From: a virus
Virus record (IMG/VR): IMGVR_UViG_3300038318_000232
Location: 1 to 64,000 of that record
DNA: 64,000 nt
Direction: 5' to 3' (one strand)
Shown: positions 27,240 through 62,749 of the stretch, in pieces
Layout: every line of letters starts with the position of its first letter
Numbering within the stretch: the first letter of the stretch is position 1
Position numbers and translations under genes: made by a program
The notes under the pieces: generated by a model
Databases searched by the model: none
Seen by the model: only the letters and a program-made list of their open reading frames with translations
What the model was told of the DNA's origin: nothing

Positions 27240-27241
27240 AC

Positions 27242-27508
27242 CTATCCTCCAATCCTCTGTACATACCAAATGAAAAAGCCAACAAGGACCGATATTATGG
27301 TTCCTGCAACTCCAAGCACCTTCCAAAAGGCTGTTTTCCAGAAGTCAATTAGTTCTTTTATGCTCTTGGAGAGTTCATCAAGCTTAGTGCACAAAGCGTC
27401 CAAACGCTCAGTTTGCGCTGCATCCTTTATTTCCAACGCCCTAATCCTGTCCCCGTGGTCGTTAAGCCTCCTTTCGGTGATTTCATGAAATGCACAAGTT
27501 TTTTCCAT
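27242..27508 (-). CDS. xhlA: XhlA-like hemolysin/holin-associated membrane protein
   Basis: C.FHE...RL..H..RI..LE coiled coil followed by a C-terminal TM helix, directly upstream of the amidase. Confidence 0.6.
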   Translation of the reverse strand: MEKTCAFHEITERRLNDHGDRIRALEIKDAAQTERLDALCTKLDELSKSIKELIDFWKTAFWKVLGVAGTIISVLVGFFIWYVQRIGG

Positions 27509-27533
27509 CTCCCACGCCCCTTTCACAGAAAAT

Positions 27534-27554
27534 AAAAAAACCGCCCGGAAGCGG
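27534..27554 (-). terminator. weak intrinsic terminator upstream of the lysis cassette
   Basis: Minus strand CCGCT-TCCG-GGCGG followed by TTTTTTTATTTT. Confidence 0.4.
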
Positions 27555-27692
27555 ATTGCGTAGTATTAAGTTAGGTTTCCCGTCTATAGCACCACCCCTT
27601 CTTTTGTTCGACAAAACAATCGTTATTTTGATAGAGGAAAACAATTTAAAAATCAGGAATACCTCTATCAAACGAAAGGAGGGGTAGCGTAT

Positions 27693-27914
27693 ATGCTTCA
27701 AATTGAGAACCCTGTAAAATCGGCATGCCCAAATTGCGGAGGAACCGATTTTGCAACAACTAGACCAAGTCCATATTTCTTTTTGTTTCAAACAGAAATC
27801 AAGGAAACTGGCAAATGCAATACTTCTATAGACGCGGGGTTACCGGTTGTAGCGGCTGTGTGTTCTCGATGCGGCTTAATTCAACTATTTCACTCTGAAA
27901 AGTTATCGAAGTAG
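27693..27914 (+). CDS. zinc-ribbon protein (73 aa), opposite-strand moron
   Basis: AAAGGAGGGG SD; CPNCGG...CSRCG. Confidence 0.55.
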   Translation: MLQIENPVKSACPNCGGTDFATTRPSPYFFLFQTEIKETGKCNTSIDAGLPVVAAVCSRCGLIQLFHSEKLSK

Positions 27915-28090
27915 GAACGGTATTTATAACCGCCTTTAAGGATTCCATGGTCTCACCACCTTTCTTATTAAATAAGCCGGGATAAATTTCCCGGCTACTC
28001 TTATTTAGCCTTCCCGATTGCCTTTTAACAACTATAGAAGTAAGATCATGGTAGATGTAGTATAACGACTATTTGAATGGAGGTTTTAAC

Positions 28091-29077
28091 ATGAGAAAGT
28101 TTTTTGCGACTTTGTTGACGATATTGTTGGTGTTTGGAACCGTTGGGACTACGAAAGCCGCAACAATGGAAGAATTAGATTATTTTAACAACCAAATAAC
28201 GACTTTGGTAAACGCCGGTAAAATGAGCAACAACGAGGTATATGGGATCTTTGTTGACATGTCCAACGTCCCGCAGGGCTCTATTGCATCAACCGTTTAT
28301 CAGACTGATATGCAATTAACTACACTGACAATTGCCAATGTGTACCCACAAGATATTTATGGAACTAACGGGGCAAGAGATAAGCTTCTCCGGTTTTGGG
28401 CCTATCTCTACAATAACCAGAACAGTAACCTTATGGGTGGGTGGGGAAGCCCACCGCAAGACTCTATAATGCAGTTTGTCTATGGTCCGCAGAAAATAGA
28501 AATATTAAATACTTTTGTTACTGGAATACCTGAATGCCTTGCCAATGAGCGTATTGAAGATGTCATTGGCGGGGGATCTGGCTTTGGTTCAACAACTACT
28601 ATTAATGAAACAACAACCAATAACACAGACCCCAATTCATGGGCAGATGCCTATTTGGAAACAATTTTCACCGTAAACTCAACTAGCATCACATCAACCT
28701 CCAGCGCTGAAACAACCACCAACGGGACAATTACTACTATGGACGTTGCGCCTTATATAAGGGATAGCCGCACATATGTCCCGGTAGCACATCTTGCCTA
28801 CTCGCTGGGAGTGCCCGGCGATGGGGTGACATGGAATGGTGCTACCCGGCAGGTGGGTATTACAAAAGGAGATACCAGTATAACCTTATTAATTGGCAGT
28901 CCGGTCATGCTTGTTAACCAAAGCCCTGTAAGAATGGACGTTGCGCCAGAGATAACGAACAACCGAACATTTCTGCCTGCTGGGTGGGTAGCTGAAGCGC
29001 TGGGGGCAGATGTAACATGGAACGCTCATACCAATCAGATCGTGATTAAAACACCCATAGAAGCACCGGGGGATTAA
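28091..29077 (+). CDS. secreted protein with two C-terminal copper-amine-oxidase-N-like repeats (moron)
   Basis: GGAGG SD; signal peptide MRKFFATLLTILLVFGTVGTTKA; repeats MDVAPYIRDSRTYVPVAHLAYSLG...VTWNG and MDVAPEITNNRTFLPAGWVAEALGADVTWN. Confidence 0.75.
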   Translation: MRKFFATLLTILLVFGTVGTTKAATMEELDYFNNQITTLVNAGKMSNNEVYGIFVDMSNVPQGSIASTVYQTDMQLTTLTIANVYPQDIYGTNGARDKLLRFWAYLYNNQNSNLMGGWGSPPQDSIMQFVYGPQKIEILNTFVTGIPECLANERIEDVIGGGSGFGSTTTINETTTNNTDPNSWADAYLETIFTVNSTSITSTSSAETTTNGTITTMDVAPYIRDSRTYVPVAHLAYSLGVPGDGVTWNGATRQVGITKGDTSITLLIGSPVMLVNQSPVRMDVAPEITNNRTFLPAGWVAEALGADVTWNAHTNQIVIKTPIEAPGD

Positions 29078-42389: not shown

Positions 42390-43484
42390 CTAAGCACCTA
42401 TTTTCAGGATGCCCGTTGCTTCGTTGAAAAGCTTACCGTATCCGTTCGCCTCGGATACCGTCAAGGTTTCAACTTGACGCTTAATAAAGCGCTGCGATTC
42501 GCTTATATCCGACCCAGCGACAGTTACTTCCTCTATGGCATGCTGACTGTTGATGCCCACTAAGTCCTTAGCGGTTACATCTTCATGCCAGAACAGTTTC
42601 AGGCTCTTGTTGGGCATTTGGGGAGAAGCAACATTAAACCCGCCAGCCTGCCCCTGTGACAGCAGCCAGAGCAATTGAGCAATACCGACTCCGGTAGTGT
42701 TGGTCAGCACCAGGTCAACGTAGGTATCCTTGTCGGCGATCAGAATATCGCAAGGGAATAATTCAAACTCCATGAGGAACTTCAGGAATCCCTTTGCTGT
42801 TAGGGTTCCGGCAGTCGCATCAGTGTCCAAGTCGGTCAGATTATAAGTGGTAGCGGCGTTATCGTTGCCATCTCCGTTCTCGATTACATCCAGAATGTCA
42901 TATACTTTGTCCTTGGCGGTCTGCATGCCGACACGCTTAATAAACAGGGCCAGCAGGTCAATTTGCATCTGTTTTACGAACTCATAGGAATAGTCAATCG
43001 CCCGTCCATATTTCCAAAGCACAATGTTTTGCTTTCTGCCAACAATCTTAGAGGTTGGCAGTTCAGCAGCCTCACCGAAGCGCACCTTGTGCTGCGCCGC
43101 AGGCTGATCGTCAATATAGTAAGTCTTATAAGAGTCACTATTGATCGTGGTGCGTTTACCGATGAGGTAGGGCAGCATGGTATCGTTAATAATCGCTTCA
43201 CGTACCTGCCGAGCCACAAACTCGGGGAAAAGTATTTCATCAACTCCGGTGCGGAAAAACGCCTGCACCTGATCAGCCTGCCGGCCACCGAAAACCGAAC
43301 TTGTCTGAATCCCCCGATGCAGTAACATTTGGCGAAAGCCATCAAGGTTCGGGCGCTCCGGGTCTTTTTTGAGAGCTTCGTTAAAATATGCCGACAGCGA
43401 GGTCTTTTCTTCGATAATCTTGTCGTAAATATTCCAGGTTAATTCGATTTCACCGGGGCTTAATTTCTTTGCAGCCATAACCAT
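42390..43484 (-). CDS. major capsid protein
   Basis: 364 aa, position after protease-scaffold and decoration genes. Confidence 0.75.
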   Translation of the reverse strand: MVMAAKKLSPGEIELTWNIYDKIIEEKTSLSAYFNEALKKDPERPNLDGFRQMLLHRGIQTSSVFGGRQADQVQAFFRTGVDEILFPEFVARQVREAIINDTMLPYLIGKRTTINSDSYKTYYIDDQPAAQHKVRFGEAAELPTSKIVGRKQNIVLWKYGRAIDYSYEFVKQMQIDLLALFIKRVGMQTAKDKVYDILDVIENGDGNDNAATTYNLTDLDTDATAGTLTAKGFLKFLMEFELFPCDILIADKDTYVDLVLTNTTGVGIAQLLWLLSQGQAGGFNVASPQMPNKSLKLFWHEDVTAKDLVGINSQHAIEEVTVAGSDISESQRFIKRQVETLTVSEANGYGKLFNEATGILKIGA

Positions 43485-43515
43485 CTTGTTATTTCACTTC
43501 CTTTCTTCTCGGCAA

Positions 43516-43935
43516 TTAGCCGATAAATACCATGACAGGGCCGGTAGCGGCGGTCCCTACATCAACGACAAAACTTCTACCCGTTGCACCGGTCGAGGGC
43601 ATTACAGCGCCAGCACCGTTAACTACCAGCACGTTGCCAGCAATCGGCAGGGAGCCAGATACACCAGTAAACGAGGTATAGCCCATATCTTGGACGGTCA
43701 TCACATCATCAGAATGATAATGCTCCACTTTCCCCAGTAACCGGTCGCCAGCGGAGCCGAACCCAGCGGTCATATTGCCGGTAATGGTCACAGCCATGCC
43801 TTCTGCCACGGCTCTGCCGGCAGCAGCCTTGGGGCCACCAGCGGCCAAAACAGCTGCTTTTAATGTCGCGTCCGCTTTCCAAGTACTCGCGTTCGCATGA
43901 ATCTGCTCAAAATCGAGTCTCTCTCTACGCTTCAA
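43516..43935 (-). CDS. DUF2190-like head decoration protein
   Basis: Gly/Ala-rich 139 aa directly upstream of the capsid gene. Confidence 0.55.
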   Translation of the reverse strand: MKRRERLDFEQIHANASTWKADATLKAAVLAAGGPKAAAGRAVAEGMAVTITGNMTAGFGSAGDRLLGKVEHYHSDDVMTVQDMGYTSFTGVSGSLPIAGNVLVVNGAGAVMPSTGATGRSFVVDVGTAATGPVMVFIG

Positions 43936-43974
43936 TTCAGTTCACTTCCTTTCAAAATCCGTAAAAATGGGAAT

Positions 43975-43995
43975 AAAAAAACCGCTCTAAAGCGG
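43975..43995 (-). terminator. intrinsic terminator inside the late operon
   Basis: Minus strand CCGCT-TTAG-AGCGG followed by TTTTTTT. Confidence 0.55.
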
Positions 43996-44029
43996 AGTTA
44001 TTGTGGTTATTTAGTTGTTGTAGCCAGTG

Positions 44030-45340
44030 CTACGCTTTGAACGCATCGTCTGGCAGGTCGTTTTTGGAGAAGATTTCTTTTCCGGCTCCCGCCTGGGTTT
44101 GACGACCAGCGGGGATTTCATCTTTGGCCTGCTTCTCAAAGGTCGCCATGATGTCCTTGATGCCCTGAGAACTCATGCCAGCAAAAGTATTCTTCCAGGT
44201 TTCTGCCGGGAAGTCGTTGCCCTGAGCGCGAACACCCATAGCCACTGCATCGTCAATAAGCTGAGTCATATAGGATTCGCCCTCTTTGGCATAGGATAAA
44301 ACCTTGTCGGCAGGCAGTTCTTTGCCTAGCTTGTCAACTACGTCCTGCTGGGTCATGTAAAGCTCAATGGATTTCAAAGCTTCTCCTATCTCTTTTCCGG
44401 TTTCAGCAGTTTTAGCCAAGGCATCGGCAACGGCCTTATCAGCCGCATCTTTTACCAGAGCGTCAACTTCTTCCTGGGTATAGGTTTTAACATCTTCACT
44501 CACTTGTTTTCCACCACCTTTCAAATTCGATAAATCGGGGACTGTAAAGACGTTGCCTTTTGCGATGTCGTCTTTCTTGGCATAGGTGATCAGGGTTTCC
44601 CTACCAGCACTCATAATGTGGTAGGTTCTAACCCCAAAAGGTACTTCTTTGATGTTTTCCACCATAGCAAAGGGACTAGGTACGCCTTGCCCGCCCTCTC
44701 CAATAGCCGACAATACGCCAGCAGTAGGATAAGCACCATCAAAGACAAGACTATCCTCCATGAGAAAGCCAGGGGGCTTGGCAATATCCCAACATAGCTT
44801 TTCTTCGCCGTTTACATCATAAGTTTTGCCGGGATAATGTTCACACTCGCTATAACGCCTAATATCTTTATGGCAAATTGAGCATTCGTGGGTATCTGCG
44901 CCCCAACCTATGGAAGTGTCAAATAGTGTGCCCGATTCAATACCCTGGATAAGAGAATTGGTATTAATGCCATCAATCTCCATTCCCTTGACCATGTAAA
45001 ACCAGGCATCCAATGCCCATTTCTCGGAATCAGTATCGCCATGGCGCAACTTGGCGTCAAAGCTTCTGCCGTAGGTAAATGCTCCCCGAGGTCTGCCCCC
45101 CATTCCAAATAGCCCGCTAGGTGCCCAGGAATGGTCCACCATAAGAGACACGCCCTTTATAGCATCCTGCTTAAATACTTCCAGCAAAGTCTTGTGAAGC
45201 TGAATATAGCGTTCAGGGATTACCATGTCGCCAGCTAACTTGTTGGGGAAAACAAAAACCTCGTCCGCAGACAAGGTTCTCTTCGCCAGCATATTTATTT
45301 TTTCCAATTGCCCCGCTGTCGGGACTCCAAATTCAGCCAA
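44030..45340 (-). CDS. prohead protease - scaffold fusion protein
   Basis: N-terminal SLMVDHSW-type segment reminiscent of HK97-family prohead proteases, Cys/His cluster, Ala/Lys/Glu-rich coiled-coil C-terminal half; sits between portal and capsid. Confidence 0.6.
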   Translation of the reverse strand: MAEFGVPTAGQLEKINMLAKRTLSADEVFVFPNKLAGDMVIPERYIQLHKTLLEVFKQDAIKGVSLMVDHSWAPSGLFGMGGRPRGAFTYGRSFDAKLRHGDTDSEKWALDAWFYMVKGMEIDGINTNSLIQGIESGTLFDTSIGWGADTHECSICHKDIRRYSECEHYPGKTYDVNGEEKLCWDIAKPPGFLMEDSLVFDGAYPTAGVLSAIGEGGQGVPSPFAMVENIKEVPFGVRTYHIMSAGRETLITYAKKDDIAKGNVFTVPDLSNLKGGGKQVSEDVKTYTQEEVDALVKDAADKAVADALAKTAETGKEIGEALKSIELYMTQQDVVDKLGKELPADKVLSYAKEGESYMTQLIDDAVAMGVRAQGNDFPAETWKNTFAGMSSQGIKDIMATFEKQAKDEIPAGRQTQAGAGKEIFSKNDLPDDAFKA

Positions 45341-45373: not shown

Positions 45374-45640
45374 CTATTTCACCGCGTCTTTCAAGGCTTT
45401 GCCTGCCCTGAATCCAACAGACTTACTCGCAGGAATTTCAACCTCCTGCCCAAAAGCCGTACCTTTATGAGCGGCCCGTTCTCTTAGTTCAAAAGTGCCG
45501 AATCCCAGGATTGATACTTTTTCACCCTGAGATACCGCTTTACCGATGGTTTCAGCCAGGGCATCCAAGAACTTCCCGCTGTCCTTCTGGGTAAAGCCTG
45601 TTTTGTAGGCCAGTTCTTTTACCAATTCACCTTTATTCAT
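45374..45640 (-). CDS. hup: HU-family histone-like DNA-binding protein
   Basis: MNKGELVKELAYKTGFTQKD...ILGFGTFELRERAAHKG......EVEIPASKSVGFRAGKALKDAVK is a near-canonical HU sequence. Confidence 0.9.
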   Translation of the reverse strand: MNKGELVKELAYKTGFTQKDSGKFLDALAETIGKAVSQGEKVSILGFGTFELRERAAHKGTAFGQEVEIPASKSVGFRAGKALKDAVK

Positions 45641-45702
45641 GGTTCTTGCCTCCATTCGTTTTATTAATATTTAATATTGCGCCGCATTTACGGCATTTTA
45701 TT

Positions 45703-47148
45703 TCACTTTGTCTTTCCTTTGACGATTCCCAATCGTGAGCGCAAACCTTTATCGGCCTGTTGTAGTCCACCCTTGCCATGTTCATCGGTTGCAGTAAGAT
45801 CACCCCCTCTGCCGAAGGATACCCTTGCAGACTCGCTCGGTTCACCGCCAGCCTTCTCTTTCCCAAGAACTGCGCCAGCTGCTTCGTCGCCTAACTGCCA
45901 CCCCATCAACTGAGCAATAGCATGGAACTCTTCTTCCATGAGCTTTACAGTCATTCGCTGTTCTTCGCTATTCCAATCAATCTGATTATGAGTAAATACC
46001 GGGACAGCTTGATAACCACGAACCCTAAGCCAGAGCCTTGCTATTTCTTCGATTATCCGCTTGGAACCTCGCTGAATAGAGGCTATGCCCGAGCAAAAAA
46101 TACGGAATTGGACAGTTCCCCAACTCTCGGTCACGCCTGTATTGCGGTTCATAAAGATAGACAATTGCTTTGCACCTGATAAGGTTTGAGTATCAACCAT
46201 CTCCATAATGGCCCTCACATCAACGCTTCTATTCCCGCTAAAGCCCTGCGTCATGCCTATTTCCACTTCGTCAAAGTGAATGTAATCGCTATCTGGGTCC
46301 AAGTTGTCCAACATGGACACAATCTCATCGTACCTGGCTTTTAGCCATTCCCTTTGTTTCACAACGCTGTTTCTGGCTTCAGCGGGCATTGCGGCCATCA
46401 TGCGCTCCATCAGAATCTTAATGTCATTACGAGGCCAGCCTTGACGGTGGAGAACCGCCTGCAAATCCTGCATAATCTGCATCTGAAAATCCACCGACTG
46501 CAAGACGGGCGCGAGGATTAGATTGCCTCGGGGATCGTCAATATCGGGGTCAGTTGGCACCCAATAGAAATTAGCTTTTCCTGGTTCAAGCGATACCCTG
46601 CCGCCAATTTGACCCTGATAAGGTATCCATGTCTGCCGGCCATTGCGTTCTTCCAACTCCCATTCAATTGTCTGCGGGATAATTGGATGAACGTCCACAA
46701 TATCGGTTCGATCCTCGCTTACTTCAACCTCTAAGCCCTGAGCACCCAGCAGATAAGCAGACTGATGCAAAACATCCACAAGGCCATCCATCCCGGCATT
46801 GGAAATTTGGTTAATACGAGAAGCAAAGGCGCGCCATTCATCCTCAATATCAGACATTCTATTTTTTGTTCCAGGAGCATAGAAGGCCATCTCGTGCCCC
46901 TGGTTGGCAAGCCTGACAAAGTTCCAAATACCCATCGACACATCAGGATTAATTTTTTTAAGAAATTTTAAGGCTCTTGATTGCTCCGGAATTCTGCGTA
47001 AGGTTTCAAGCGTATCTGCAACCCGAGAACGATGAGGGGAAAGCGTTGTTCGCCCGTATCTATTGCCAACCGAACTGACGCGCCCAGTCGGGATCGCTGT
47101 TTCCGGTTCAGCCCTGGTCCGCTTCCTGAATTTATTCCAAAACACCAT
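45703..47148 (-). CDS. portal protein
   Basis: 481 aa, first large structural gene after the terminase region. Confidence 0.75.
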   Translation of the reverse strand: MVFWNKFRKRTRAEPETAIPTGRVSSVGNRYGRTTLSPHRSRVADTLETLRRIPEQSRALKFLKKINPDVSMGIWNFVRLANQGHEMAFYAPGTKNRMSDIEDEWRAFASRINQISNAGMDGLVDVLHQSAYLLGAQGLEVEVSEDRTDIVDVHPIIPQTIEWELEERNGRQTWIPYQGQIGGRVSLEPGKANFYWVPTDPDIDDPRGNLILAPVLQSVDFQMQIMQDLQAVLHRQGWPRNDIKILMERMMAAMPAEARNSVVKQREWLKARYDEIVSMLDNLDPDSDYIHFDEVEIGMTQGFSGNRSVDVRAIMEMVDTQTLSGAKQLSIFMNRNTGVTESWGTVQFRIFCSGIASIQRGSKRIIEEIARLWLRVRGYQAVPVFTHNQIDWNSEEQRMTVKLMEEEFHAIAQLMGWQLGDEAAGAVLGKEKAGGEPSESARVSFGRGGDLTATDEHGKGGLQQADKGLRSRLGIVKGKTK

Positions 47149-47168: not shown

Positions 47169-47708
47169 TTACTTTTCCCGCCCGACTTTCTTTCGCGCCA
47201 GCGTCCAAACTAGATACGGCTCCCCTGCTGGTTCTGGGCCAAACAACGCGGCCCACTCGCCGCCAGCAAAACCCGACTTAACAATTTTCAATCCCGCCTG
47301 AACATGCAATTCGTTCAGGGTTTCTTGCACATAATCAAGCTCGTCTTTCCATTCGGCTTTAGTTTGGGCTTTGCATTTCATGTAAGGCACGCACCCGCTA
47401 TTGGGCACAAAGTTGAGCACATATCTTCTGCTCATACCGGCCATACGCTGGATAACATCAACTGCTTTCTCCGGCGCGAAATGCTCCAGCAACCCAGAAG
47501 AATAAACCAGTTCATACTTTTTGTCAGGCTCAAACTCCATTACATCGGCCTTGATTACGCTCTCAACTTGCGGGTCAATATCAATCCCATCTGCCCCGAT
47601 TGTTTGTGACAATTCACCTGACCGACAACCAATCTCCAGGGCCGAATGAACATTAAGCTCCTTTACCAATTCTTTGAATTCCTCTATAAATCCTGGATGA
47701 TTAAACAC
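47169..47708 (-). CDS. class I SAM-dependent methyltransferase
   Basis: Motif I ALEIGCRSGE, post-I DIDP, motif II/III LVYSSGLLEHF; GAGGAGGG SD (start GTG 47708 or TTG 47714). Confidence 0.75.
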   Translation of the reverse strand: MFNHPGFIEEFKELVKELNVHSALEIGCRSGELSQTIGADGIDIDPQVESVIKADVMEFEPDKKYELVYSSGLLEHFAPEKAVDVIQRMAGMSRRYVLNFVPNSGCVPYMKCKAQTKAEWKDELDYVQETLNELHVQAGLKIVKSGFAGGEWAALFGPEPAGEPYLVWTLARKKVGREK

Positions 47709-48552
47709 CTGCAACCCTCCTCAATAAGTTTGCTGTTTCTTCTCCGCTGTTTCCCCTTAATGTTTTGGGGAATACGCCCTCAATAAACTCCCCTGCCTTA
47801 CTGTCTATGCCGCCTAAATAAGCCCGTTTTACGCAATCCAAAAGGTTTGTGCTACTCCAGGCATGATAGCCGATTTCTTCCCAGTATATTTGGTCCTCAA
47901 AAGAACCAGGGAAACACTTCATTACACCCTTTTTCAGCAACCAGGAAGGGAATACCACCGGCTTGTTTAATGTCCAAGCCTCATACACCAGACTGCCAGC
48001 ATCACTGATCACCACATCAGCATCAACCAAAACCTGCATGGTTACATTGCCTTTTGAAATTGCCGGGTGTGGGGCCTCTATCACATCGTAGAACTCCCGT
48101 AGTTTTTTGAGCTCATTATCGAACCTACCTTGAAGTGATATTTCCTCAATCGCTCCATGAGTAGGAGCATAGAGCACGCGCGGCTTATCACGGGGAGCCG
48201 CTTTGTATTTGCCTTGGAATATTGGGTCAAGCTTGGTATAGCCTCCGACAAGGATTTTACTTTGAGGGAAGCCCTGTCTGACTAACTTATCAACCCAGGC
48301 AGGACCAGAAACAAAGACATAATCAAAGTCCTTCACCTTGTCAGCATTGCGATAGTTTTTATCAGCGATGCCATGAGGAATAAACACCTGACACCCTTTG
48401 TCAACCAGAAAGAATCCTACATTTATACTCTCGGGCATCACTCTTTTTTCCGCAGAAAAGTCGGGCAAATACTCTTGTATGGGGCCTATAAGCGCGTCAA
48501 GTATGCTTTTATACGGACCACTCGAAGGTACATAAAAATTAATCCTCTTCAT
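47701..48552 (-). CDS. TagB/TagF-like CDP-glycerol glycerophosphotransferase family protein
   Basis: FIPHGIADK (WHG.p.K-like) and VLYAPTHG (YAPTWR-like) motifs. Confidence 0.6.
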   Translation of the reverse strand: MKRINFYVPSSGPYKSILDALIGPIQEYLPDFSAEKRVMPESINVGFFLVDKGCQVFIPHGIADKNYRNADKVKDFDYVFVSGPAWVDKLVRQGFPQSKILVGGYTKLDPIFQGKYKAAPRDKPRVLYAPTHGAIEEISLQGRFDNELKKLREFYDVIEAPHPAISKGNVTMQVLVDADVVISDAGSLVYEAWTLNKPVVFPSWLLKKGVMKCFPGSFEDQIYWEEIGYHAWSSTNLLDCVKRAYLGGIDSKAGEFIEGVFPKTLRGNSGEETANLLRRVAGV

Positions 48553-48556
48553 GGCA

Positions 48557-49708
48557 TCACGCCCCAAACTGTACTAGAACTTGATTCCACCGCTGCTTCC
48601 AAATCTCAATATCAAAACAATCACGGGCTATCTCCCGGTTACGTTTGCCCATTACCTCGCGGGCTTCAGGATTCGCGGCTAACCACTTGATGATCTCTGA
48701 TAGATTATTTTTAACCGGGTCAAAGATTATCGTGTTATAGCCGTCTATGTTCGCGTCAGTCAAGCCACCCGCATGAGTAGTAATAGTGGGCAGGCCGCAA
48801 GCCATGGACTCGATCATCGCCAACGAGCTTCCTTCACAGGCTTTCGTTGGAATCACCGCCAAGTCCGACTGCTGATATATTTCCTCCATGCCGTCAAGCG
48901 GCTTCCAGACAAAACGCAGGTTTTTGGTCGTATCGCCCCATTCCTGCTGCTTTGCATAAGCGCCGGGGTCTGAGCCCTGCCCAACTGCCAGAAAATCAAA
49001 ATCCGGACACTCGGTTGAGGCCCGGATAAATTCGTTACATCCCCTGAGTAGGGTTAATCGTCGAGGGAATAGCACCTTGAGCCGTTCCCAATCTCTCTTA
49101 TCTGGCTCTAGCGGCTTAAATTTCTCTGTGTCAACGTAGTTGTATATGACTTCGATGTTGCGCTCTAAGCCCGGCTTAAGGGCTTGCATGACTCTCTTGG
49201 TATTGCTATCCACGCTGACTACCATATCGGGATTAGCGAATCCCTGTAGTTGCCGGTTCATAAATTCCTTACGATGATTTTCGTCACCACTCCAAGCATC
49301 AGCATAGGGGTAATCCCAATAAATGCCGTGACAGATAGCGATTGACGGGCTGACCGCATAGGGGTAAGCCATGTAGGTTGTCCAGTAGATCGCCAGATCA
49401 TAATTACCGACAAAACACTCGTTGAACTTCATATTGAGCAGCGGATTTGTGTTGAACTGCCATGAAGTGTCCGGCAGGATAATGAACGGTATGCCATCGT
49501 AGTATTTTGTTATCTGGCCACAGGGAATGCGCTTGCCGTCGCGGATGTTGTTAATGTACTGATAGCATGTTACGCTATGTCCACGAGATTGCAGGAAGTG
49601 GCAGAAGTCCAATGTAACGCGTTCCGACCCGCCGAATACGATATAATCCTCACCGCTGAGCTCGGAAACGTCCTGGTAAAAGGCCGGGGTTAAAATGGCT
49701 ATACGCAT
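48557..49708 (-). CDS. GT-B fold glycosyltransferase (GT4-like)
   Basis: EGSSLAMIESMACGLPTITTHAGGLTD (E-x7-E region); GGAGGTGA SD. Confidence 0.8.
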   Translation of the reverse strand: MRIAILTPAFYQDVSELSGEDYIVFGGSERVTLDFCHFLQSRGHSVTCYQYINNIRDGKRIPCGQITKYYDGIPFIILPDTSWQFNTNPLLNMKFNECFVGNYDLAIYWTTYMAYPYAVSPSIAICHGIYWDYPYADAWSGDENHRKEFMNRQLQGFANPDMVVSVDSNTKRVMQALKPGLERNIEVIYNYVDTEKFKPLEPDKRDWERLKVLFPRRLTLLRGCNEFIRASTECPDFDFLAVGQGSDPGAYAKQQEWGDTTKNLRFVWKPLDGMEEIYQQSDLAVIPTKACEGSSLAMIESMACGLPTITTHAGGLTDANIDGYNTIIFDPVKNNLSEIIKWLAANPEAREVMGKRNREIARDCFDIEIWKQRWNQVLVQFGA

Positions 49709-50001
49709 CCCGTCACCTCCAACCTGTCCATATAAGACCTATCGTGGTCGCGGTCAATAAAAAAACACTTGTTAGCACCAACGCCATATCCGCAGGCACC
49801 ACCACCGATTGCCTCTATTAAAATATGTCTGTTACCAGCAAGCATAATCCCATCTGGCCTAGATTCGATTATTGCCTTTTCTAATTTTTCTCGCAAATAC
49901 CATCTGACTAACTGAATGTCTCGAAAATAGGGCACCTGAAGAACGATAAAAGAATCATCATCCAAGAACTCCAACGCTTGGTCAACCTGGTCATATCTCA
50001 T
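49699..50001 (-). CDS. hypothetical protein (100 aa), first gene of the glyco-cassette
   Basis: AAGGAGG SD; overlaps the GT start. Confidence 0.55.
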   Translation of the reverse strand: MRYDQVDQALEFLDDDSFIVLQVPYFRDIQLVRWYLREKLEKAIIESRPDGIMLAGNRHILIEAIGGGACGYGVGANKCFFIDRDHDRSYMDRLEVTGCV

Positions 50002-50027: not shown

Positions 50028-50049
50028 AAAAAAGCCCGCTACTGCGGGC
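50028..50049 (-). terminator. intrinsic terminator between the terminase region and the glyco-cassette
   Basis: Minus strand GCCCGC-AGTA-GCGGGC followed by TTTTTT. Confidence 0.65.
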
Positions 50050-50343
50050 CTACATCCAAACTATTCCGATTTCTCCTATGTGGTCGTTAAACTTCAGCGG
50101 TTTTGGCAATGGGGCCTCCGTAAATGTCTTATCCACCCACATTGTACGGCACATTAATTTGCCCTTACGCCAAACATAAAGCCAAACCACATGAACTGGA
50201 TTATTTGACTTACGCACCTCGTCGGTAGCGTCCTCGATCATCCGTTTAACCGCAGTCTTATTCTTCTTATCAACCTCGACATGCGCAACGTACCTCTTAC
50301 ATATCGGCCTTGAAACGTCCTGGATCTCGGTTGTTTTGTACAT
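50050..50343 (-). CDS. hypothetical protein (97 aa)
   Basis: GGGAGG SD. Confidence 0.55.
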   Translation of the reverse strand: MYKTTEIQDVSRPICKRYVAHVEVDKKNKTAVKRMIEDATDEVRKSNNPVHVVWLYVWRKGKLMCRTMWVDKTFTEAPLPKPLKFNDHIGEIGIVWM

Positions 50344-50459
50344 TCATCCGATGCCTCCCATTCAGGATTAACCATTATAGTTCCGTCACTCATTACCGAA
50401 TAGTCTGGGCCGATGGCTAAATCAACGCCGATAACTGCATCGCCATATTCGCCTTCCAT
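50238..50459 (-). CDS. hypothetical small protein (long overlap with the next gene; real end uncertain)
   Basis: GGAGGCGG SD 6 nt upstream of ATG; the last ~35 codons overlap 50050..50343. Confidence 0.35.
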   Translation of the reverse strand: MEGEYGDAVIGVDLAIGPDYSVMSDGTIMVNPEWEASDECTKQPRSRTFQGRYVRGTLRMSRLIRRIRLRLNG

Positions 50460-50571: not shown

Positions 50572-52116
50572 TTACGCTGTCTTTTTCCGGTGATTTACCC
50601 CGCCTATCAATCCCATGAACGGCAATCCTTCTTCCAAGAGGTCAAAGTTCTTGTAAGCCAGCATCATAGCCGTTACAAGGTCGTCATGGCCGTTCTTAGA
50701 AGCGTTGCCGAAACTAATAGACTTGGTTTTCGGTGAGATTGAATACTGATAATCCTTAAATTCAAGCAGTAATGGCTCGAACTTGGGATAACTGATGCGG
50801 TGTTGCTCAATTAGCATAGCCAAGTTGTTGACCATGTTTTCCTTCTCTTTGGGAGAGAAAAATACATCTTCAACCTCCATTCCCCGCTTGGTAAGTTGGG
50901 AAGGGATAGTCTCGCCTAAGCCGGTTCTGTCCATAACGACCGGAGCATGGTTATAAATGCGTGATAGCCTCGCTATTTCATCAAACTGCTTATCCCAACC
51001 CCATCCAGACCATTGCTTAATATAAACCGTTTCGCCCCTACCGTTGCGGACCACAACCCCTGAATAGTCAATAGACTTAGCTGGGTCATAGCCAATTACA
51101 TAGGTTTCTCCCGGTTCCACCATGCCATCACCGATATAAATAGCGCATTCATCGGCATAGGGGAACATGCAATTGCCTTCGGGAAGGAACTGGCCCATAA
51201 CCTCCTGCTCGTAAATTCTGGCCGGGAAGCGGCGCTTGATGCCCTCAAGGAATTTCTTATCCTTTCGCACAAGATAAGGATTATCCCATGAGCTAAACTG
51301 CCAAGATTCCCAATCCTCATCGTAGTAAGGGGTGTCTTTTTGCCCCCACTTGAACATGTCATAATAAAACCCGAGTCCTCGTGGGGTCCCGTTTATAAGC
51401 CCCAATCCACCTTGCCCATTCGGACCACGTCCAGGGGAAGCAAGACGCATTTCAATATTTGACCAAACCTCATCAAAATTCCTTATTCGGGCTGCTTCGG
51501 TGATGAGCACTATGTCAATACCAACACCAACCAGCGAATTAGGGTCATCAGCTGAACGGACCTCAATCATGCCACCGTTGACGGTCTGAATCATCTTATC
51601 GGATTCCCAATAGTTCTCTACCCACTCCCGGGGGAAAAAGGCTTTTAACTCACGCCAAACCTGCCGGGCAAGAATGTAGGTGGGTGCTATAATCCAGCCA
51701 TGAACCGAAGGAACCATGTCAGGTCCGCGCTCTTCGCTGAGCATTTCGGCAAATTTCGTGATAAACTCCATTATCATGCAGCGGTCTTTTCCCCATCTTG
51801 CGCCAGCTGCTATGACTTTGAATCGCGCCTTACTCTCGTGGATTAACTTCTGCCCAGGATGCGGCATATAGGCTATCGTGGCCTTACTATTCCCCCTGGC
51901 TACAGCAGTTCGGCACTTATCGCAGGAATTATACTGCGTGAACTTCTCCAATTGCGGCATCCACTTCTGTTCAAAGGGCTTACCGCACTCCTTACATATA
52001 CTCAACTTGCCGCCTGAATTAGCCTCTATCTGCGTTTTAAGGCGATTATTCACCCTTTGTACGCGGTCCCGGCGCTCGCCATTGGGATTATTAAATTTGT
52101 CGCCACCTTTTGCCAT
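50572..52116 (-). CDS. terL: terminase large subunit
   Basis: Walker-A-like AAGARWGKD, size, N-terminal zinc ribbon; start ATG 52116 behind AAGGCAGGTGATCTC (the ATG at 52140 abuts a terminator hairpin). Confidence 0.85.
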   Translation of the reverse strand: MAKGGDKFNNPNGERRDRVQRVNNRLKTQIEANSGGKLSICKECGKPFEQKWMPQLEKFTQYNSCDKCRTAVARGNSKATIAYMPHPGQKLIHESKARFKVIAAGARWGKDRCMIMEFITKFAEMLSEERGPDMVPSVHGWIIAPTYILARQVWRELKAFFPREWVENYWESDKMIQTVNGGMIEVRSADDPNSLVGVGIDIVLITEAARIRNFDEVWSNIEMRLASPGRGPNGQGGLGLINGTPRGLGFYYDMFKWGQKDTPYYDEDWESWQFSSWDNPYLVRKDKKFLEGIKRRFPARIYEQEVMGQFLPEGNCMFPYADECAIYIGDGMVEPGETYVIGYDPAKSIDYSGVVVRNGRGETVYIKQWSGWGWDKQFDEIARLSRIYNHAPVVMDRTGLGETIPSQLTKRGMEVEDVFFSPKEKENMVNNLAMLIEQHRISYPKFEPLLLEFKDYQYSISPKTKSISFGNASKNGHDDLVTAMMLAYKNFDLLEEGLPFMGLIGGVNHRKKTA

Positions 52117-52140
52117 GAGATCACCTGCCTTGAAGGGCAT

Positions 52141-54589: not shown

Positions 54590-54814
54590 TTATCCCTCCT
54601 TTAAACCTGCCCTTTCATCGGCTAGATATTGGGCTTCCTTGTCACGAATGCCCATAAGCCAGAACCGGTTTTTGGTACGGCGAACCCAAACGCCTTTTGA
54701 TAAATAGTAGAGATAAGCCGTTTTTGTGATTTGTTTCAGGTTTAGTCCCTCCTTATTTCCACCGAACGAAATAGCGAAATCCTTGTTTTCAAATGAGGGG
54801 GATTTTGTAAACAT
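54590..54814 (-). CDS. hypothetical small protein (start uncertain)
   Basis: Its 3' end supplies the SD of the next ORF; the first in-frame ATG abuts tRNA-Trp. Confidence 0.3.
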   Translation of the reverse strand: MFTKSPSFENKDFAISFGGNKEGLNLKQITKTAYLYYLSKGVWVRRTKNRFWLMGIRDKEAQYLADERAGLKEG

Positions 54815-54888
54815 GGCACCGGCCAAAAGAATTGAACTTCTACCCTCAGTTTTGGAGACTGAAATGCTACCAATTACACCAGACCGGC
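54814..54888 (-). tRNA. tRNA-Trp (anticodon CCA)
   Basis: Cloverleaf by hand: anticodon arm TCAGT-CTCCAAA-ACTGA, T loop TTCAATT, encoded CCA. Confidence 0.85.
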
Positions 54889-54891
54889 ACA

Positions 54892-54965
54892 TGGTTAGGA
54901 GGGAAAGAATCGAACTTTCGCATTGCGGGTCAAAGCCGCATGTTCTACCACTGAACTACCTCCCA
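54892..54965 (-). tRNA. tRNA-Gln (anticodon TTG)
   Basis: Acceptor TGGGAGG/CCTCCTA (U1-A72), anticodon arm TGCGG-CTTTGAC-CCGCA, T arm GAAAG-TTCGATT-CTTTC, encoded CCA. Confidence 0.9.
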
Positions 54966-54966
54966 A

Positions 54967-55042
54967 TGGAGCCGAGTGGAGGAATCGAACCTCCTTATGC
55001 TCCCTTACAAGGGGAGTGACCACGCCAATGGACCAACCCGGC
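54967..55042 (-). tRNA. tRNA-Thr (anticodon TGT)
   Basis: Acceptor GCCGGGT/ACTCGGC, anticodon arm CTCCC-CTTGTAA-GGGAG, T arm GGAGG-TTCGATT-CCTCC, encoded CCA. Confidence 0.9.
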
Positions 55043-55980: not shown

Positions 55981-57252
55981 CTACTCACCGAGAATCGCCC
56001 CCCAGCCGAACTGCATAAAGCAGGATAGGAACTTATCAGGGTTTTCTCCAAAATAAACAACTGCCTGCCCCTGCAAAGGCGCTCCAATAGAGCCACCGGG
56101 AGTATAGAATTTAACCCGGCCTTTCGGAAACACAATTGCACTTGCTTGGCCAATAAGGGTATTAAACCAAGCGGTTTCTGTGGCATTATTCACCAAAACA
56201 ATCGCTTCCTGAATATCACCAGTCGCAAAATAATTAACCAGTTTATCACAGAACAAAGGAATTAACTCCCCCGCATATGGGGGATTCATCCAAACGCGGC
56301 CAGTCCAATCTTGTTCTAATCCGTTGTCCTCTATAGTAAATATCTGCTTCGCGCCTACTACCCTATTAGCAACTTCACTGCTGGCCGGATCTAAATCTAT
56401 ATCACCCATTACCTCCTTGGCCGCTTCTATATACGGCGAAGGTGTATACCATTCGTTGTTACCGGAATTATAGGCAACATGCGGGGTTTTCTTCTCTATG
56501 GCTTCCTTAACCGTTTTTGATTCACCGGTTGCCACTTCCTGAATAACTTGCCGCTGTACTTCGGGTTCGGCCTTCGCTAGTTCCAAAGTATCCTTCTTAG
56601 TCACCGGAATCTCATGGTTAAGAATTTGCTGTTTTACTTGGGGTGTAGTGTTTTGAGTTATAGTGTCCACGGCCCTAGTGAATTCAGCATCATTTTTGAT
56701 GGTTCGAGGAGAAACATTGTGCTGCTCAGCCAATCTTTCAGCCGTTTTAGGTTGGGTGCAATTTTTGCCTTCAACCTCGCTAAATTGGTTTATCCCTTGC
56801 TCATTAGGAATTTTCTTTTTTTCTCTCTCGTATTGCAAACCCCGAAGATAACTTTGATTCGCCGGAGTTAAATTACGTCGGCCCAATTGGTTATTTATTA
56901 TCCAGTCAATTACCTCGTCGCGGCTATCAAAATCCATCTCTATTGTTTTAAATTCAATGCCATGATCTTGGCAAATGTCATATCGGTTATGTCCATCAAT
57001 CAAAATGTGTATTTCTTCCATGGGATAAATTCCATAACCGCACTTAGGGCACTCCCAATTGCCGCCTGGTCCGAACTCAACTGCAACATCTTCGCAACAA
57101 TCACGACAATACCCAGTATCATACATTATGGGTTGCGCCCAAACTACTAGCGCATCTCGGCACCCTTCCGCAACAATGTTTTTCTCTAACTGCTCATACT
57201 CATCCACTGCCAACCGGGGAATGAGATTCCTGAACTCCTGATCAATAATCAT
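55981..57252 (-). CDS. ParB-like nuclease domain fused to phage-type DNA N6-adenine methyltransferase
   Basis: ParB box ILIDGHNRY with an inserted zinc ribbon; C-terminal VWMNPPYAGE (NPPY) methyltransferase domain. Confidence 0.85.
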   Translation of the reverse strand: MIIDQEFRNLIPRLAVDEYEQLEKNIVAEGCRDALVVWAQPIMYDTGYCRDCCEDVAVEFGPGGNWECPKCGYGIYPMEEIHILIDGHNRYDICQDHGIEFKTIEMDFDSRDEVIDWIINNQLGRRNLTPANQSYLRGLQYEREKKKIPNEQGINQFSEVEGKNCTQPKTAERLAEQHNVSPRTIKNDAEFTRAVDTITQNTTPQVKQQILNHEIPVTKKDTLELAKAEPEVQRQVIQEVATGESKTVKEAIEKKTPHVAYNSGNNEWYTPSPYIEAAKEVMGDIDLDPASSEVANRVVGAKQIFTIEDNGLEQDWTGRVWMNPPYAGELIPLFCDKLVNYFATGDIQEAIVLVNNATETAWFNTLIGQASAIVFPKGRVKFYTPGGSIGAPLQGQAVVYFGENPDKFLSCFMQFGWGAILGE

Positions 57253-57397
57253 CAATACCATCCTTTCGTATTGGTCAATCCACGATAAATGCCCGGAACA
57301 GAAGGCAGGATTTACCTCTTTTCGGCTTGCAATCACCTATTTCCGGGCATGAAAAAAGCCGCTCCCGAAAGAACGGCCTTTATCACCTTATTTATTT

Positions 57398-62038: not shown

Positions 62039-62749
62039 ATGATGGTACAACTCACTCAGGAACAGATAAATGTCCTGGAGGCGGCGGGCGCAATGCCTCA
62101 GCAGGAGATTCCCTCAGTCCCTCAGTACGGTAAAAAATTCTCCCTGGTTAAGGGCAGCGGGAAAAAGCGCAAACCCAAGAGACTTCCCAAGGTAGTCAGT
62201 GAGGAAAAATTTGCTCAGTTAGTCTCCAAGCTCAATACCAAGTGCTTTATCGGGCTCCGCAATCGCGTTATCTTGGAAACCCTGTACAAATCCGGCCTCA
62301 GAGTGCAAGAGTTATGCGATCTCCAAGTCTCAGATGTAAATATTGAAACCGGCCAGATTTATGTCCAGGAAGGCAAGAACTCAAAGGATAGAATGATTGC
62401 TATTGGCCCTTCGCTCATGGAATGGCTCAGTCAATGGGCAAGCGTGCGGCCTCAGCAGAGCGAGAGCTTCTTCTGTACCTTCAAGGGCGGGGCTTTAAAT
62501 AAGCGGTATGTACGGGCTATGATAGAGCGGCAGAGCATCAACACTCAGGTATTTATCCAGGTTGGCAAGAAAAAGAAGGTTGTTTGGCCTCATGCTCTAC
62601 GCCATTCGTTTGCCACGCATTTGCTGGACAAAGGCATGAACATTATCGAGGTTAAGGAGCTCATGGGGCATGAGAGTATTGCTACAACCCAGGTGTACAC
62701 CCATGTTTCGATGAAGGTTCTGGATGCCAAGATTAAAGCCCTTGGTTAA
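62039..62749 (+). CDS. short tyrosine recombinase (XerC/D-like catalytic domain, no large N-terminal arm-binding domain)
   Basis: RNRVILETLYKSGLRVQELCDL, HALRHSFATHLL, GHESIATTQVYTHV (R..HxxR..H..Y). Confidence 0.85.
   Translation: MMVQLTQEQINVLEAAGAMPQQEIPSVPQYGKKFSLVKGSGKKRKPKRLPKVVSEEKFAQLVSKLNTKCFIGLRNRVILETLYKSGLRVQELCDLQVSDVNIETGQIYVQEGKNSKDRMIAIGPSLMEWLSQWASVRPQQSESFFCTFKGGALNKRYVRAMIERQSINTQVFIQVGKKKKVVWPHALRHSFATHLLDKGMNIIEVKELMGHESIATTQVYTHVSMKVLDAKIKALG

Follow-up and report, generated by a model that had tools for sequence, protein, structure and literature searches.

Among the tailed phages, glycosylation of virion proteins has to our knowledge been shown experimentally only in mycobacteriophages, where it weakens recognition of the particles by antibodies. 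Phage-encoded glycosyltransferases (GTs) and an O-methyltransferase of Che8 and Corndog (cluster O) modify capsid and tail-tube subunits (Freeman et al. 2023, as cited in PMC11600133; PMC12619734); these systems are not known to include a TagF-like enzyme. The type A flagellin glycan of C. difficile 630 involves the GT CD0240, the TagF-like CD0244 and the methyltransferase CD0243 (PMC10714395, PMC4441256). In the spore crust of B. subtilis, the TagB/TagF-like SpsB and sugar-pathway genes of the sps cluster glycosylate a protein shell that is assembled in the cytoplasm (PMC7439481).

Here we analysed a 64,000-nucleotide stretch of viral DNA (the window), in which a sequence-only reading had noticed genes of a GT, a TagF-like enzyme and an SAM methyltransferase (MT) between the large terminase (terL) and portal genes. 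Like the mycobacteriophage systems, this cassette pairs a phage-encoded GT with a methyltransferase, and here the pair sits within the virion structural genes. However, its GT, of family GT4, has no detectable homology to those systems (tblastn found nothing at E≤1e-5 in 50,697 phage records), and the host phylum and the genomic slot also differ. The likeness to the C. difficile locus lies in the enzyme types, namely a protein-glycosylating GT, a TagF-like enzyme that is proposed to attach a phosphodiester-linked group taken from a CDP donor, and an SAM methyltransferase. That locus, however, is cellular, has flagellin as acceptor and includes the donor-synthesis genes CD0241/CD0242, which are absent from the window; its methyltransferase acts on the transferred threonine, whereas the MT of the window lineage is also found without a TagF-like enzyme. 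SpsB is likewise cellular and not virion-associated, and its own function is not settled. Among cultured phages, a homologue of the TagF-like enzyme was detected only in Thermobifida phage P1312 (genes 025/027; 39% identity, E 9e-36). Its annotation is glycosyl/glycerophosphate transferase, and an O-methyltransferase gene is found one gene away, but this homologue has no adjacent GT4 partner and occupies another module position.

The sequence-only reading knew of no arrangement involving a TagF-like enzyme. For phage virions this stands in the literature that we searched, which on virion-related TagF-like enzymes and glycerophosphotransferases yielded nothing beyond papers on receptors, teichoic acids and phage SP-15; the C. 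difficile and SpsB systems are nevertheless close cellular precedents.

Gene order between terL and portal

All genes of this region lie on the minus strand. The upstream boundary of the cassette is terL (52140..50572; Pfam Terminase_6C 2e-11 and Terminase_6N 9e-6; phrog_2 2e-42), and the portal gene (47148..45703; phrog_3753 2.6e-46, with tblastn matches to annotated portal proteins) follows the MT gene. Between them we measured a gap of 3,423 bp, which agrees with the earlier estimate of about 3.4 kb. The head genes (42390..45340, minus strand), coding for a 436-aa scaffold/protease-like protein, a 139-aa virion protein and the major capsid protein (phrog_37798, phrog_4588 and a Phage_capsid_4 annotation), lie downstream, and their products are candidates for the acceptor of the modification; their order is kept in relatives, and the gene calls bear out that the cassette is co-oriented with them. 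In a cultured related Bacillus phage the portal gene comes directly after terL with nothing between, so the additional genes truly set this phage apart from the common arrangement.

We observed very tight junctions throughout the cassette. A small upstream gene, ORF100, overlaps the GT4 gene by 10 nt, the GT4 and TagF-like genes are 4 nt apart, the TagF-like and MT genes overlap by 8 nt, and the MT gene is separated from the portal gene by 20 nt. Because these junctions overlap or span only 4–20 nt, the cassette has no room for regulation separate from that of the portal and head genes. A promoter scan gave 8 sites compared with 10.6 in shuffled controls and, as this is fewer than in the controls, we claim no promoter. 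An intrinsic-terminator-like hairpin (GCCCGC-AGTA-GCGGGC followed by T6) is located at 50051..50032 on the minus strand, between ORF97 and ORF100. It was found by a pattern scan, which counted 11 sites of this kind in the region where 7.3 were expected, and by direct reading of the sequence; it is a putative terminator and coincides closely with the one proposed earlier at 50028-50049.

The GC content between 47 and 50 kb (0.47–0.49) is the same as that of the flanks. In comparison with a 92%-identical relative (L193), the cassette genes have dN/dS values of 0.03–0.24, indicating purifying selection. Chance open reading frames are excluded by the E-values and by the conservation across dozens of contigs.

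Assignment of the three enzymes

The gene at 49708..48557 (minus strand) codes for a GT-B glycosyltransferase of family GT4 and is the conserved core of the cassette. Both Pfam domains scored above their gathering cut-offs: the C-terminal Glycos_transf_1 (1.3e-17; 64.4 bits, cut-off 26.4) and the N-terminal Glyco_transf_4 (residues 25–196; 8.9e-11; 42.5 bits, cut-off 28.5). Every match in a sequence search of the PDB was a GT4 enzyme. The C-domain holds the E-x7-E motif, in which E292, G293 and E300 do not vary among 26 homologues. We found 103 homologous clusters and a dN/dS of 0.11.

The next gene (48567..47701, minus strand; probable ATG at 48552) encodes a minimal TagF/TarL-like CDP/CMP-donor phosphotransferase of 283–288 aa (dN/dS 0.20). 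It matched PF04464 with 26.6 bits (gathering cut-off 22.1), covering model positions 128–291 of 367 only. A family profile searched against the PDB found TarL (8va1) at 2e-5 and Cps3D at 3e-4, and only this profile reached TarL; a single-sequence phmmer search of the PDB returned nothing. The AlphaFold2 model (pLDDT 94) has a GT-B fold. Its top 14 Foldseek matches were TagF (3l7j/3l7i first, E 1e-10) and TarL, with E-values of 1e-10 to 1e-8 and TMq of ~0.6; Cps3D/Bcs3-type polymerases ranked next, and UDP-GlcNAc 2-epimerases after them. The enzyme shares with TagF, TarL and TagB (PF04464) the GT-B fold and the C-domain nucleotide-binding motifs PT(H/F), HP and DxSS..YE, for which the profile search gave an alignment to TarL 8va1. 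It differs from them in its length (400–580 aa in the solved chains), in having no additional N-terminal region, in its sequence (~16% identity) and in its context, a phage head operon rather than wall-teichoic-acid genes.

The HG and YAPT motifs recognized earlier correspond to H65-G66 and Y133-T136. Among 30 homologues the invariant residues are H65, D69, K70, P135-T136-H137, H167-P168, D184, S192 and Y195-E196. The invariant H65-G66-x-x-D69-K70 is a candidate counterpart of the N-domain catalytic histidine of TagF and TarL. A profile of the N-domain alone gave no sequence alignment to this histidine (H444 in TagF, H300 in TarL), which counts against a role of the enzyme on the virion.

The third gene (47714..47169, minus strand; probable start at 47708) encodes a class I SAM-dependent methyltransferase. 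In Pfam it stayed below the gathering score (Methyltransf_23, 21.5 bits, cut-off 27), although several homologues do carry PF13489. The AlphaFold2 model (pLDDT 88) shows the Rossmann-like seven-strand methyltransferase fold; Foldseek gave 899 matches at E≤1e-3, and the top ones were all SAM methyltransferases (ChlM, Plu4895, NodS). Motif I (E27-I-G29-C-R-S32-G33) and the acidic D45 after strand 2 are conserved, with E27, G29, S32, G33 and D45 invariant in 11 sequences. The best NCBIfam match was TIGR03587, a flagellin-glycan-associated methylase (1e-7, below its cut-off). The families named in the sequence-only reading hold for all three enzymes, with support from Pfam, the PDB profile search and AlphaFold2/Foldseek.

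Distribution of the cassette and of the TagF-like family

In a synteny survey, the cassette occupied the terL–portal slot of about 60 related uncultured phage contigs. The shared order is terL, GT4, a variable segment, portal, scaffold, decoration and major capsid protein; the segment holds nothing, an MT, a nucleotidyltransferase or SDR together with a TagF-like enzyme and an MT, or an extra GT. GT4 is thus the core, MT is usual (in many relatives it accompanies GT4 without a TagF-like enzyme) and about nine contigs have the TagF-like enzyme in addition. In one contig (P0012) this enzyme is fused with MT into a single protein, which points to functional linkage. In another (L013) it is paired not with IspD and SDR but with a LicC-like, cytidylyltransferase-like nucleotidyltransferase, and in having such a gene this relative resembles the C. 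difficile type A locus.

Compared with the relative L005, the cassette proteins are 47–56% identical and terL and portal 60–62%; this similar divergence fits vertical inheritance with the head module. The cassette is a trait of the lineage and not an isolated insertion. What the earlier description called an insert is not a recent one: GT4 is a conserved core gene and the TagF-like gene a variable add-on. We rejected a recent horizontal insert on the basis of a composition equal to that of the flanks and of the lineage-wide synteny. All sequences of the lineage, which probably comprises uncultured phages of Bacillota, are metagenomic, and this GT4 was found in no cultured phage. As neither a DNA similarity search with the 6.7-kb region nor the tblastn search with GT4 matched any of the 50,697 phage records, there is no cultured relative to borrow data from.

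We also examined 72 viral loci of the TagF-like family. IspD and SDR (CDP-ribitol-synthase-like) flank the gene in 39 of them, and also flank homologues in Anaerovorax and in another Clostridia-like chromosome. A capsid gene lies at most 9 genes downstream in 33 of the 72 loci; in L008 the TagF-like gene is placed between tail tube and tape measure, and in L007 and P1312 it is just 3' of tail genes. One large phage group with IspD and SDR has, in addition, the genes of a complete nonulosonic-acid pathway, and a GT29-like candidate sialyltransferase is present there as a protein of its own. The LicC-like nucleotidyltransferase adjoins the family not only in L013 but also in Syntrophomonas, Paenibacillus and Lederbergia. 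In Lederbergia, as judged from reading the translations, the homologue belongs to an sps-like cluster with rhamnose-pathway-like genes, GT2s and a methyltransferase-like gene, and a glycerol-1-phosphate dehydrogenase-like protein is encoded beside it.

Proposed role of the cassette and alternatives

We favour, with about even confidence, the explanation that virion proteins are glycosylated late and in the cytoplasm, and that the sugar is methylated and bears a polyol-phosphate. The cassette would then be a late-expressed cytoplasmic glycan-building and tailoring module of the head-gene operon. GT4 would move a sugar from a host nucleotide-sugar to an acceptor; the likeliest acceptors are Ser/Thr residues exposed on at least one of the co-produced virion proteins (capsid, decoration, portal or tail). 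The minimal TagF-like enzyme would then add a phosphodiester-linked group from a CMP-containing donor to this sugar. The group would most likely be glycerol-phosphate or ribitol-phosphate, supplied through CDP-glycerol or CDP-ribitol of the host, because the phage encodes no donor-synthesis genes. MT would methylate the sugar and does not need the TagF-like product, since GT4 is its sole partner in many relatives. The resulting virion would bear a small, charged, methylated glycan whose composition differs between related phages, and which may shield the particle, stabilize it or alter its adsorption.

Three results lend weight to the earlier suggestion of sugar, polyol-phosphate and methyl groups on virion proteins, namely the terL–portal slot in about 60 phages, the tight junctions and the position of the TagF-like family beside capsid or tail genes in unrelated phages; the acceptor and the donor we infer. 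Two negative results count against it: the window contains no CDP-polyol synthesis genes (TarI/TarJ or TagD-like), and by eye the capsid protein has no obvious Ser/Thr-rich tail.

It is also conceivable, although unlikely, that the enzymes alter a wall glycopolymer of the host (teichoic-acid-like, S-layer or secondary cell-wall glycan), which would block superinfection or keep progeny from re-adsorbing to debris. Prophage-encoded teichoic-acid glycosyltransferases alter the host wall in such a way, wall teichoic acids are the usual product of TagF/TarL relatives, homologues carry the JGI label 'involved in cell wall biosynthesis', and cellular homologues sit in polysaccharide-type clusters. 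Two features of the window favour this explanation and count against a virion role: an integrase-like gene (62039-62749), so that the phage may be temperate and the cassette could act in lysogeny, and the terminator-like hairpin ahead of the cassette, which could make it a separate unit. However, the cassette is fixed in the head operon and runs directly into portal instead of occupying a moron or att-proximal position, and the promoter signal is not above background. The 288-aa TagF-like enzyme lacks the extra N-terminal membrane-associated region of the solved chains, lipid-linked precursors made late would be expected to barely alter the existing wall before lysis, and capsid genes adjoin the family in other phages.

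It is very improbable that the sugar, phospho-polyol and methyl groups are put on a modified base of the phage DNA. In every relative the cassette has its place in the head module and not in a nucleotide-metabolism module, relatives of the TagF-like enzyme are again paired with capsid or tail genes, and a Pfam scan of the 20 larger early-region ORFs gave no thymidylate-synthase-like pyrimidine hydroxymethylase or similar base-activating enzyme. Late DNA modification does occur in some other phages, and further DNA-modification genes are present in the window, namely those for a ParB-methylase fusion, a Dam-like protein and a PAPS-reductase-like protein. There is also a precedent in Bacillus phage SP-15, for whose hypermodified uracil a role of a CDP-glycerol glycerophosphotransferase and of glycosyltransferases has been proposed (PMC5977210). 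A further explanation, rather unlikely and with the virion possibly still the target, is that the TagF-like enzyme moves another CMP/CDP-activated group (a nonulosonic acid, a phospho-amino acid or phosphocholine) to the GT4 product. For CD0244 the proposed donor is CDP-threonine (PMC10714395). A function as Pse/Leg transferases has been proposed for TagB-domain proteins, so that the group moved here may be something other than a polyol-phosphate, and the 'HP' motif of sialyltransferases is similar to the invariant H167-P168 (PMC7439481). The LicC-like gene of L013 in place of IspD and SDR and the nonulosonic-acid pathway of the large phage group point the same way. In that group, however, IspD and SDR immediately adjoin the TagF-like gene and a separate candidate sialyltransferase exists, the Lederbergia homologue is paired with the glycerol-1-phosphate dehydrogenase-like protein, and the best sequence and structure matches are to TarL and TagF.

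Returning to glycosylation of the virion, we tentatively propose, as a possibility somewhat short of even, that at least two unrelated uncultured lineages make particles with teichoic-acid-like phospho-polyol on protein-linked glycans. Minimal TagF-like proteins would be soluble protein-glycan tailoring enzymes, and the GT4 gene of the window lineage would belong to the core of head morphogenesis, with its glycan varied through the exchange of MT, TagF-like, nucleotidyltransferase, SDR and extra GT modules. Such exchange would resemble the bacterial diversification of flagellin or O-antigen glycans. Polyol-phosphate chemistry has so far been tied to bacterial walls and, in proteins, to a few flagellin or pilin glycans. 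If the proposal is true, virion glycosylation would be common among uncultured Bacillota phages and would combine one conserved core enzyme with tailoring steps that can be exchanged, and its glycan could include a negatively charged polyol-phosphate. This would bear on particle stability, adsorption, recognition of phages by host and immune system, and the annotation of 'cell-wall biosynthesis' genes in viromes, and would add a compact, soluble TagF-like enzyme for glyco-engineering.

Small open reading frames upstream of GT4

ORF97 (50343..50050, minus strand) encodes a small conserved protein that was called by independent gene callers; a 73-aa ORF overlapping it (50459..50238) was called by none. 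ORF100 (50001..49699, minus strand) is preceded by an AAGGAGG ribosome-binding site, and its 3' end forms the overlap with the GT4 start. ORF97 had no family match in Pfam, PHROGs or NCBIfam searches and ORF100 no family match; PHROGs returned nothing for the small ORFs, the TagF-like enzyme or MT. We rejected the view that ORF97 and ORF100 are spurious on the basis of their dN/dS values (0.03 and 0.24, respectively). A homologue of ORF100 is present at the same position in the relative L116.

Organization of the genes between terL and the portal gene

We observed that terL (52140..50572; Terminase_6N/6C, phrog_2 2e-42), the cassette genes and the portal gene (47148..45703; phrog_3753 2.6e-46) are all encoded on the minus strand, and that terL and the portal gene are separated by 3,423 bp, in agreement with the ∼3.4 kb of co-oriented genes described in the sequence-only reading. 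It had also stated that the portal gene usually comes directly after terL, and this is the arrangement in Bacillus phage vB_BcM_CUBc25, the closest cultured relative by portal similarity. Within the gap of the window phage, ORF97 (50343..50050) has on its 3′ side a terminator-like hairpin, GCCCGC-AGTA-GCGGGC plus six T (50051..50032), while ORF100 (50001..49699) is preceded by an AAGGAGG ribosome-binding site. ORF100 overlaps by 10 nt with the gene for the 383-aa GT4 glycosyltransferase (49708..48557). The gene for the 288-aa TagF-like protein (48567..47701; start called at the ATG at 48552) follows GT4 at a spacing of 4 nt and overlaps by 8 nt with the gene for a 181-aa methyltransferase (MT; 47714..47169), which ends 20 nt from the portal gene. 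The base composition of the cassette is that of its flanks. As the gene order, the junctions, the composition and the comparison with CUBc25 all agree, the earlier description is accurate and the cassette is real.

Identity of the three enzymes

GT4 matched Glycos_transf_1 (64 bits) and Glyco_transf_4 (42 bits), both over the Pfam cut-offs, and in a sequence search of solved structures all its matches were GT4 enzymes, e.g. BshA and PimB'. The TagF-like protein scored 26.6 bits against PF04464 (gathering score, 22.1). A profile built from 30 of its homologues matched TarL of S. aureus (8va1, E 2e-5) as well as Cps3D, a capsule polymerase of TagF-like type. In the TarL alignment its PTH, HP and DxGS..YEAW line up with PTF, HP and DYSS..YEY. 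Its AlphaFold2 model is confident (pLDDT 94, pTM 0.91), with S. epidermidis TagF (E 1e-10, TM ∼0.6) and TarL as the top structural matches, followed by TagF-like capsule polymerases and then UDP-GlcNAc 2-epimerases. The protein is a minimal version of the enzyme, 283–288 aa against 400–580 aa in the solved chains. The Pfam matches of MT were all below threshold. However, its model (pLDDT 88) matched hundreds of class I SAM methyltransferases, with no other kind among the top matches, and motif I, like the acidic residue that follows strand 2, does not vary among the 11 sequences compared.

The motifs named from the sequence, E-x7-E in GT4 and HG and YAPT in the TagF-like protein, were read correctly: E292-x7-E300 is invariant in 26 GT4 homologues, and the invariant residues of the TagF-like protein are H65, D69, K70, P135, T136, H137, H167, P168, D184, S192, Y195, E196, R271, G272, S274 and G275. 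H65 is a candidate equivalent of the catalytic His of TagF (H444; H300 in TarL); as we obtained no sequence alignment of the N-domain to TagF, this is a proposal only. Thus, Pfam (for GT4 and the TagF-like protein), the profile and structure searches and the invariant motifs bear out all three enzyme assignments, and we consider them sound.

We also compared the cassette with that of a close relative, L193 (90–96% identical), and found purifying selection on all three enzyme genes as well as on ORF97 and ORF100 (dN/dS of 0.03 for ORF97, 0.24 for ORF100, 0.11 for GT4 and 0.20 for the TagF-like gene).

Modular variation of the cassette in the head operon

The phage of the window is also represented by a 68-kb contig in ENA and by one in Logan. 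GT4 homologues formed 103 clusters at 90%, nearly all of ∼385 aa and metagenomic, and there was no match to GT4 among cultured phages. In IMG/VR, 188 candidate stretches of the GT4 lineage were counted. Using gene-call tables and our own ORF/BLAST census of IMG/VR loci, we found a recurrent order, terL–(small ORFs)–GT4–X–(small ORF)–portal–scaffold–small virion protein–major capsid protein, in which X varies. In the majority of contigs X is an MT from either of two distantly related subfamilies (e.g. L111, L113, L122 and L124), and in others (e.g. L125, L137 and L150) it is nothing. TagF-like plus MT occupies this place in the window, L011, L014 and L018, preceded by a nucleotidyltransferase in L013, while L017 has a short-chain dehydrogenase (SDR), a TagF-like gene and a second GT. 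In L115, L123 and L145, the GT4 ORF is larger (∼950–1,000 aa), possibly a fusion. L005 has the TagF-like enzyme and MT fused in a single 485-aa polypeptide. From this architecture, GT4 is a core gene of the lineage's head module and MT its usual partner, independent of the TagF-like enzyme, which is an optional tailoring step, present in ∼9 of ∼55 informative contigs. Between the window and L005, identities are 62% for terL, 47% for GT4, 56% for the TagF-like protein, 53% for MT and 60% for portal, which indicates that the cassette diverged together with the head genes.

Other differences were seen around this module. In L005 (1268-4003) and L113 (2724-5507), terL is ∼910–930 aa long with a LAGLIDADG homing-endonuclease (intein-like) insertion, which the window terL does not have. 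Immediately 5′ of terL, genes for an ERCC4-type nuclease and for a phosphatase of dual specificity (DSPc) are present in L111–L114, and in the window their place is taken by two ORFs without annotation, 203 and 158 aa long. An HU-family DNA-binding protein gene (45374-45655, minus strand; Bac_DNA_binding 2.6e-24) lies between the portal and scaffold-like genes, an arrangement shared only by a few close relatives.

TagF-like genes beside capsid and tail genes in other phages

The TagF-like family comprises at least 150 clusters, with 87 confirmed stretches in IMG/VR. Among the 72 viral loci in which the ORF was called, IspD and SDR genes, both Pfam-confirmed, directly adjoin the TagF-like gene in 39; the pair resembles a CDP-ribitol synthase. 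A GT29-like gene is found within four genes upstream in 31 of the 72 loci, and in 33 a major capsid gene lies downstream, at most nine genes away.

A separate phage group (L046, L050, L057, L063, L069 and ∼35 more IMG/VR loci, plus L095, L097, L099 and L100) has AT-rich contigs of 55–60 kb with a big glycan cluster directly upstream of the scaffold and major capsid genes. This cluster encodes a PseB-like dehydratase, DegT aminotransferase, NeuB, CMP-sugar synthetase, GNAT, PIG-L and formyl- and pyruvyl-transferases, jointly a nonulosonic-acid pathway, together with a GT2, the GT29-like gene, IspD+SDR and a TagF-like enzyme of 370 aa. Although binning placed several contigs of the group in MAGs labelled Pacearchaeota, Bacteroidales, Ignavibacteria or Clostridiales, their appearance is that of phage DNA.

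Elsewhere, the TagF-like gene lies between the tail tube and tape measure genes (L008) or right after the tail genes (L007 and Thermobifida phage P1312, in the latter beside an O-methyltransferase). Cellular homologues adjoin IspD+SDR in L009/L010 and Anaerovorax. Those of Syntrophomonas and Paenibacillus adjoin a LicC-like nucleotidyltransferase, in Syntrophomonas with a GT4 as well. In Lederbergia, the homologue is within a cluster resembling the spore-polysaccharide (sps) locus, with rhamnose-pathway-like genes, a glycerol-1-phosphate-dehydrogenase-like gene, GT2s and a methyltransferase-like gene, judged by eye from the translations.

Proposed pathway and its target

The most economical reading is that GT4 would put a sugar on an acceptor, the TagF-like enzyme would use a CMP-containing donor to attach a group through a phosphodiester and MT would methylate the sugar. 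Glycerol- or ribitol-phosphate is favoured as the donated group because of the neighbour genes of the homologues and the similarity to TarL/TagF. No donor-synthesis genes were found in the window, and hence the donor would be supplied by the host. If the donor were instead a nonulosonic acid, a phospho-amino acid or phosphocholine, the chemistry would change and the target would be the same.

We favour virion proteins as the acceptor, since the cassette is fixed in the head operon throughout a lineage and cannot be regulated apart from portal, members of the TagF-like family are found again next to the capsid and tail genes of unrelated phages, and the modular variation looks like that of a diversified, exposed surface glycan. 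Modification of the host envelope is a less likely alternative, to which the terminator-like site ahead of ORF100 and an integrase-like gene lend some weight. The latter (62039-62749, plus strand; phrog_1 3e-37) is a tyrosine-integrase-like ORF of 236 aa, short for an integrase, from which the phage may be temperate. However, the position inside the head operon, the absence of a promoter signal for the cassette and a TagF-like enzyme that is truncated and apparently soluble argue against the envelope as target. Hypermodification of phage DNA, as proposed for SP-15 (PMC5977210), is a further and unlikely reading: a search of the larger early ORFs gave no base-activating enzyme, and in no case does the cassette lie within a nucleotide-metabolism module. 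The window does encode a PAPS-reductase-like protein (7694-8650, plus strand) and a DNA methyltransferase fused with a ParB-like domain (55981-57336, minus strand), which possibly have DNA-modification functions unrelated to the cassette.

Modification of virion proteins has precedents for both its chemistry and its biology, which make it plausible. The type A flagellin glycan of C. difficile is made by the same combination of enzymes as in the cassette, the GT CD0240, the TagF-like phosphotransferase CD0244 and the methyltransferase CD0243 (PMC10714395, PMC4441256). In mycobacteriophages, GT and O-MT genes glycosylate the capsid and tail tube, according to the accounts of Freeman 2023 in PMC11600133 and PMC12619734. 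Another analogue is found in B. subtilis, where the TagB-domain protein SpsB acts on the spore crust (PMC7439481). The virion modification suggested by the sequence-only reading is therefore a plausible interpretation, which the comparative evidence, beyond the reach of that reading, has strengthened. The system would belong to the glycosylation of phage virions or to the tailoring of protein glycans, here by means of a TagF-like enzyme.

Host and other features of the window

Cu_amine_oxidN1-domain proteins by the endolysin, together with the Syntrophomonas- and Pelotomaculum-like homologues, suggest that the host may be an anaerobe within the Bacillota. The Amidase_2 endolysin in the region 25471-29077 has next to it a subtilase (Peptidase_S8) that includes a Cu_amine_oxidN1 domain, and a second Cu_amine_oxidN1 protein is present; the tape measure is likewise annotated with this domain. 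These proteins hint at a host wall of Clostridia or Bacilli type. A cluster of three tRNA genes, Trp-CCA, Gln-TTG and Thr-TGT, is located at 54814-55042 on the minus strand.
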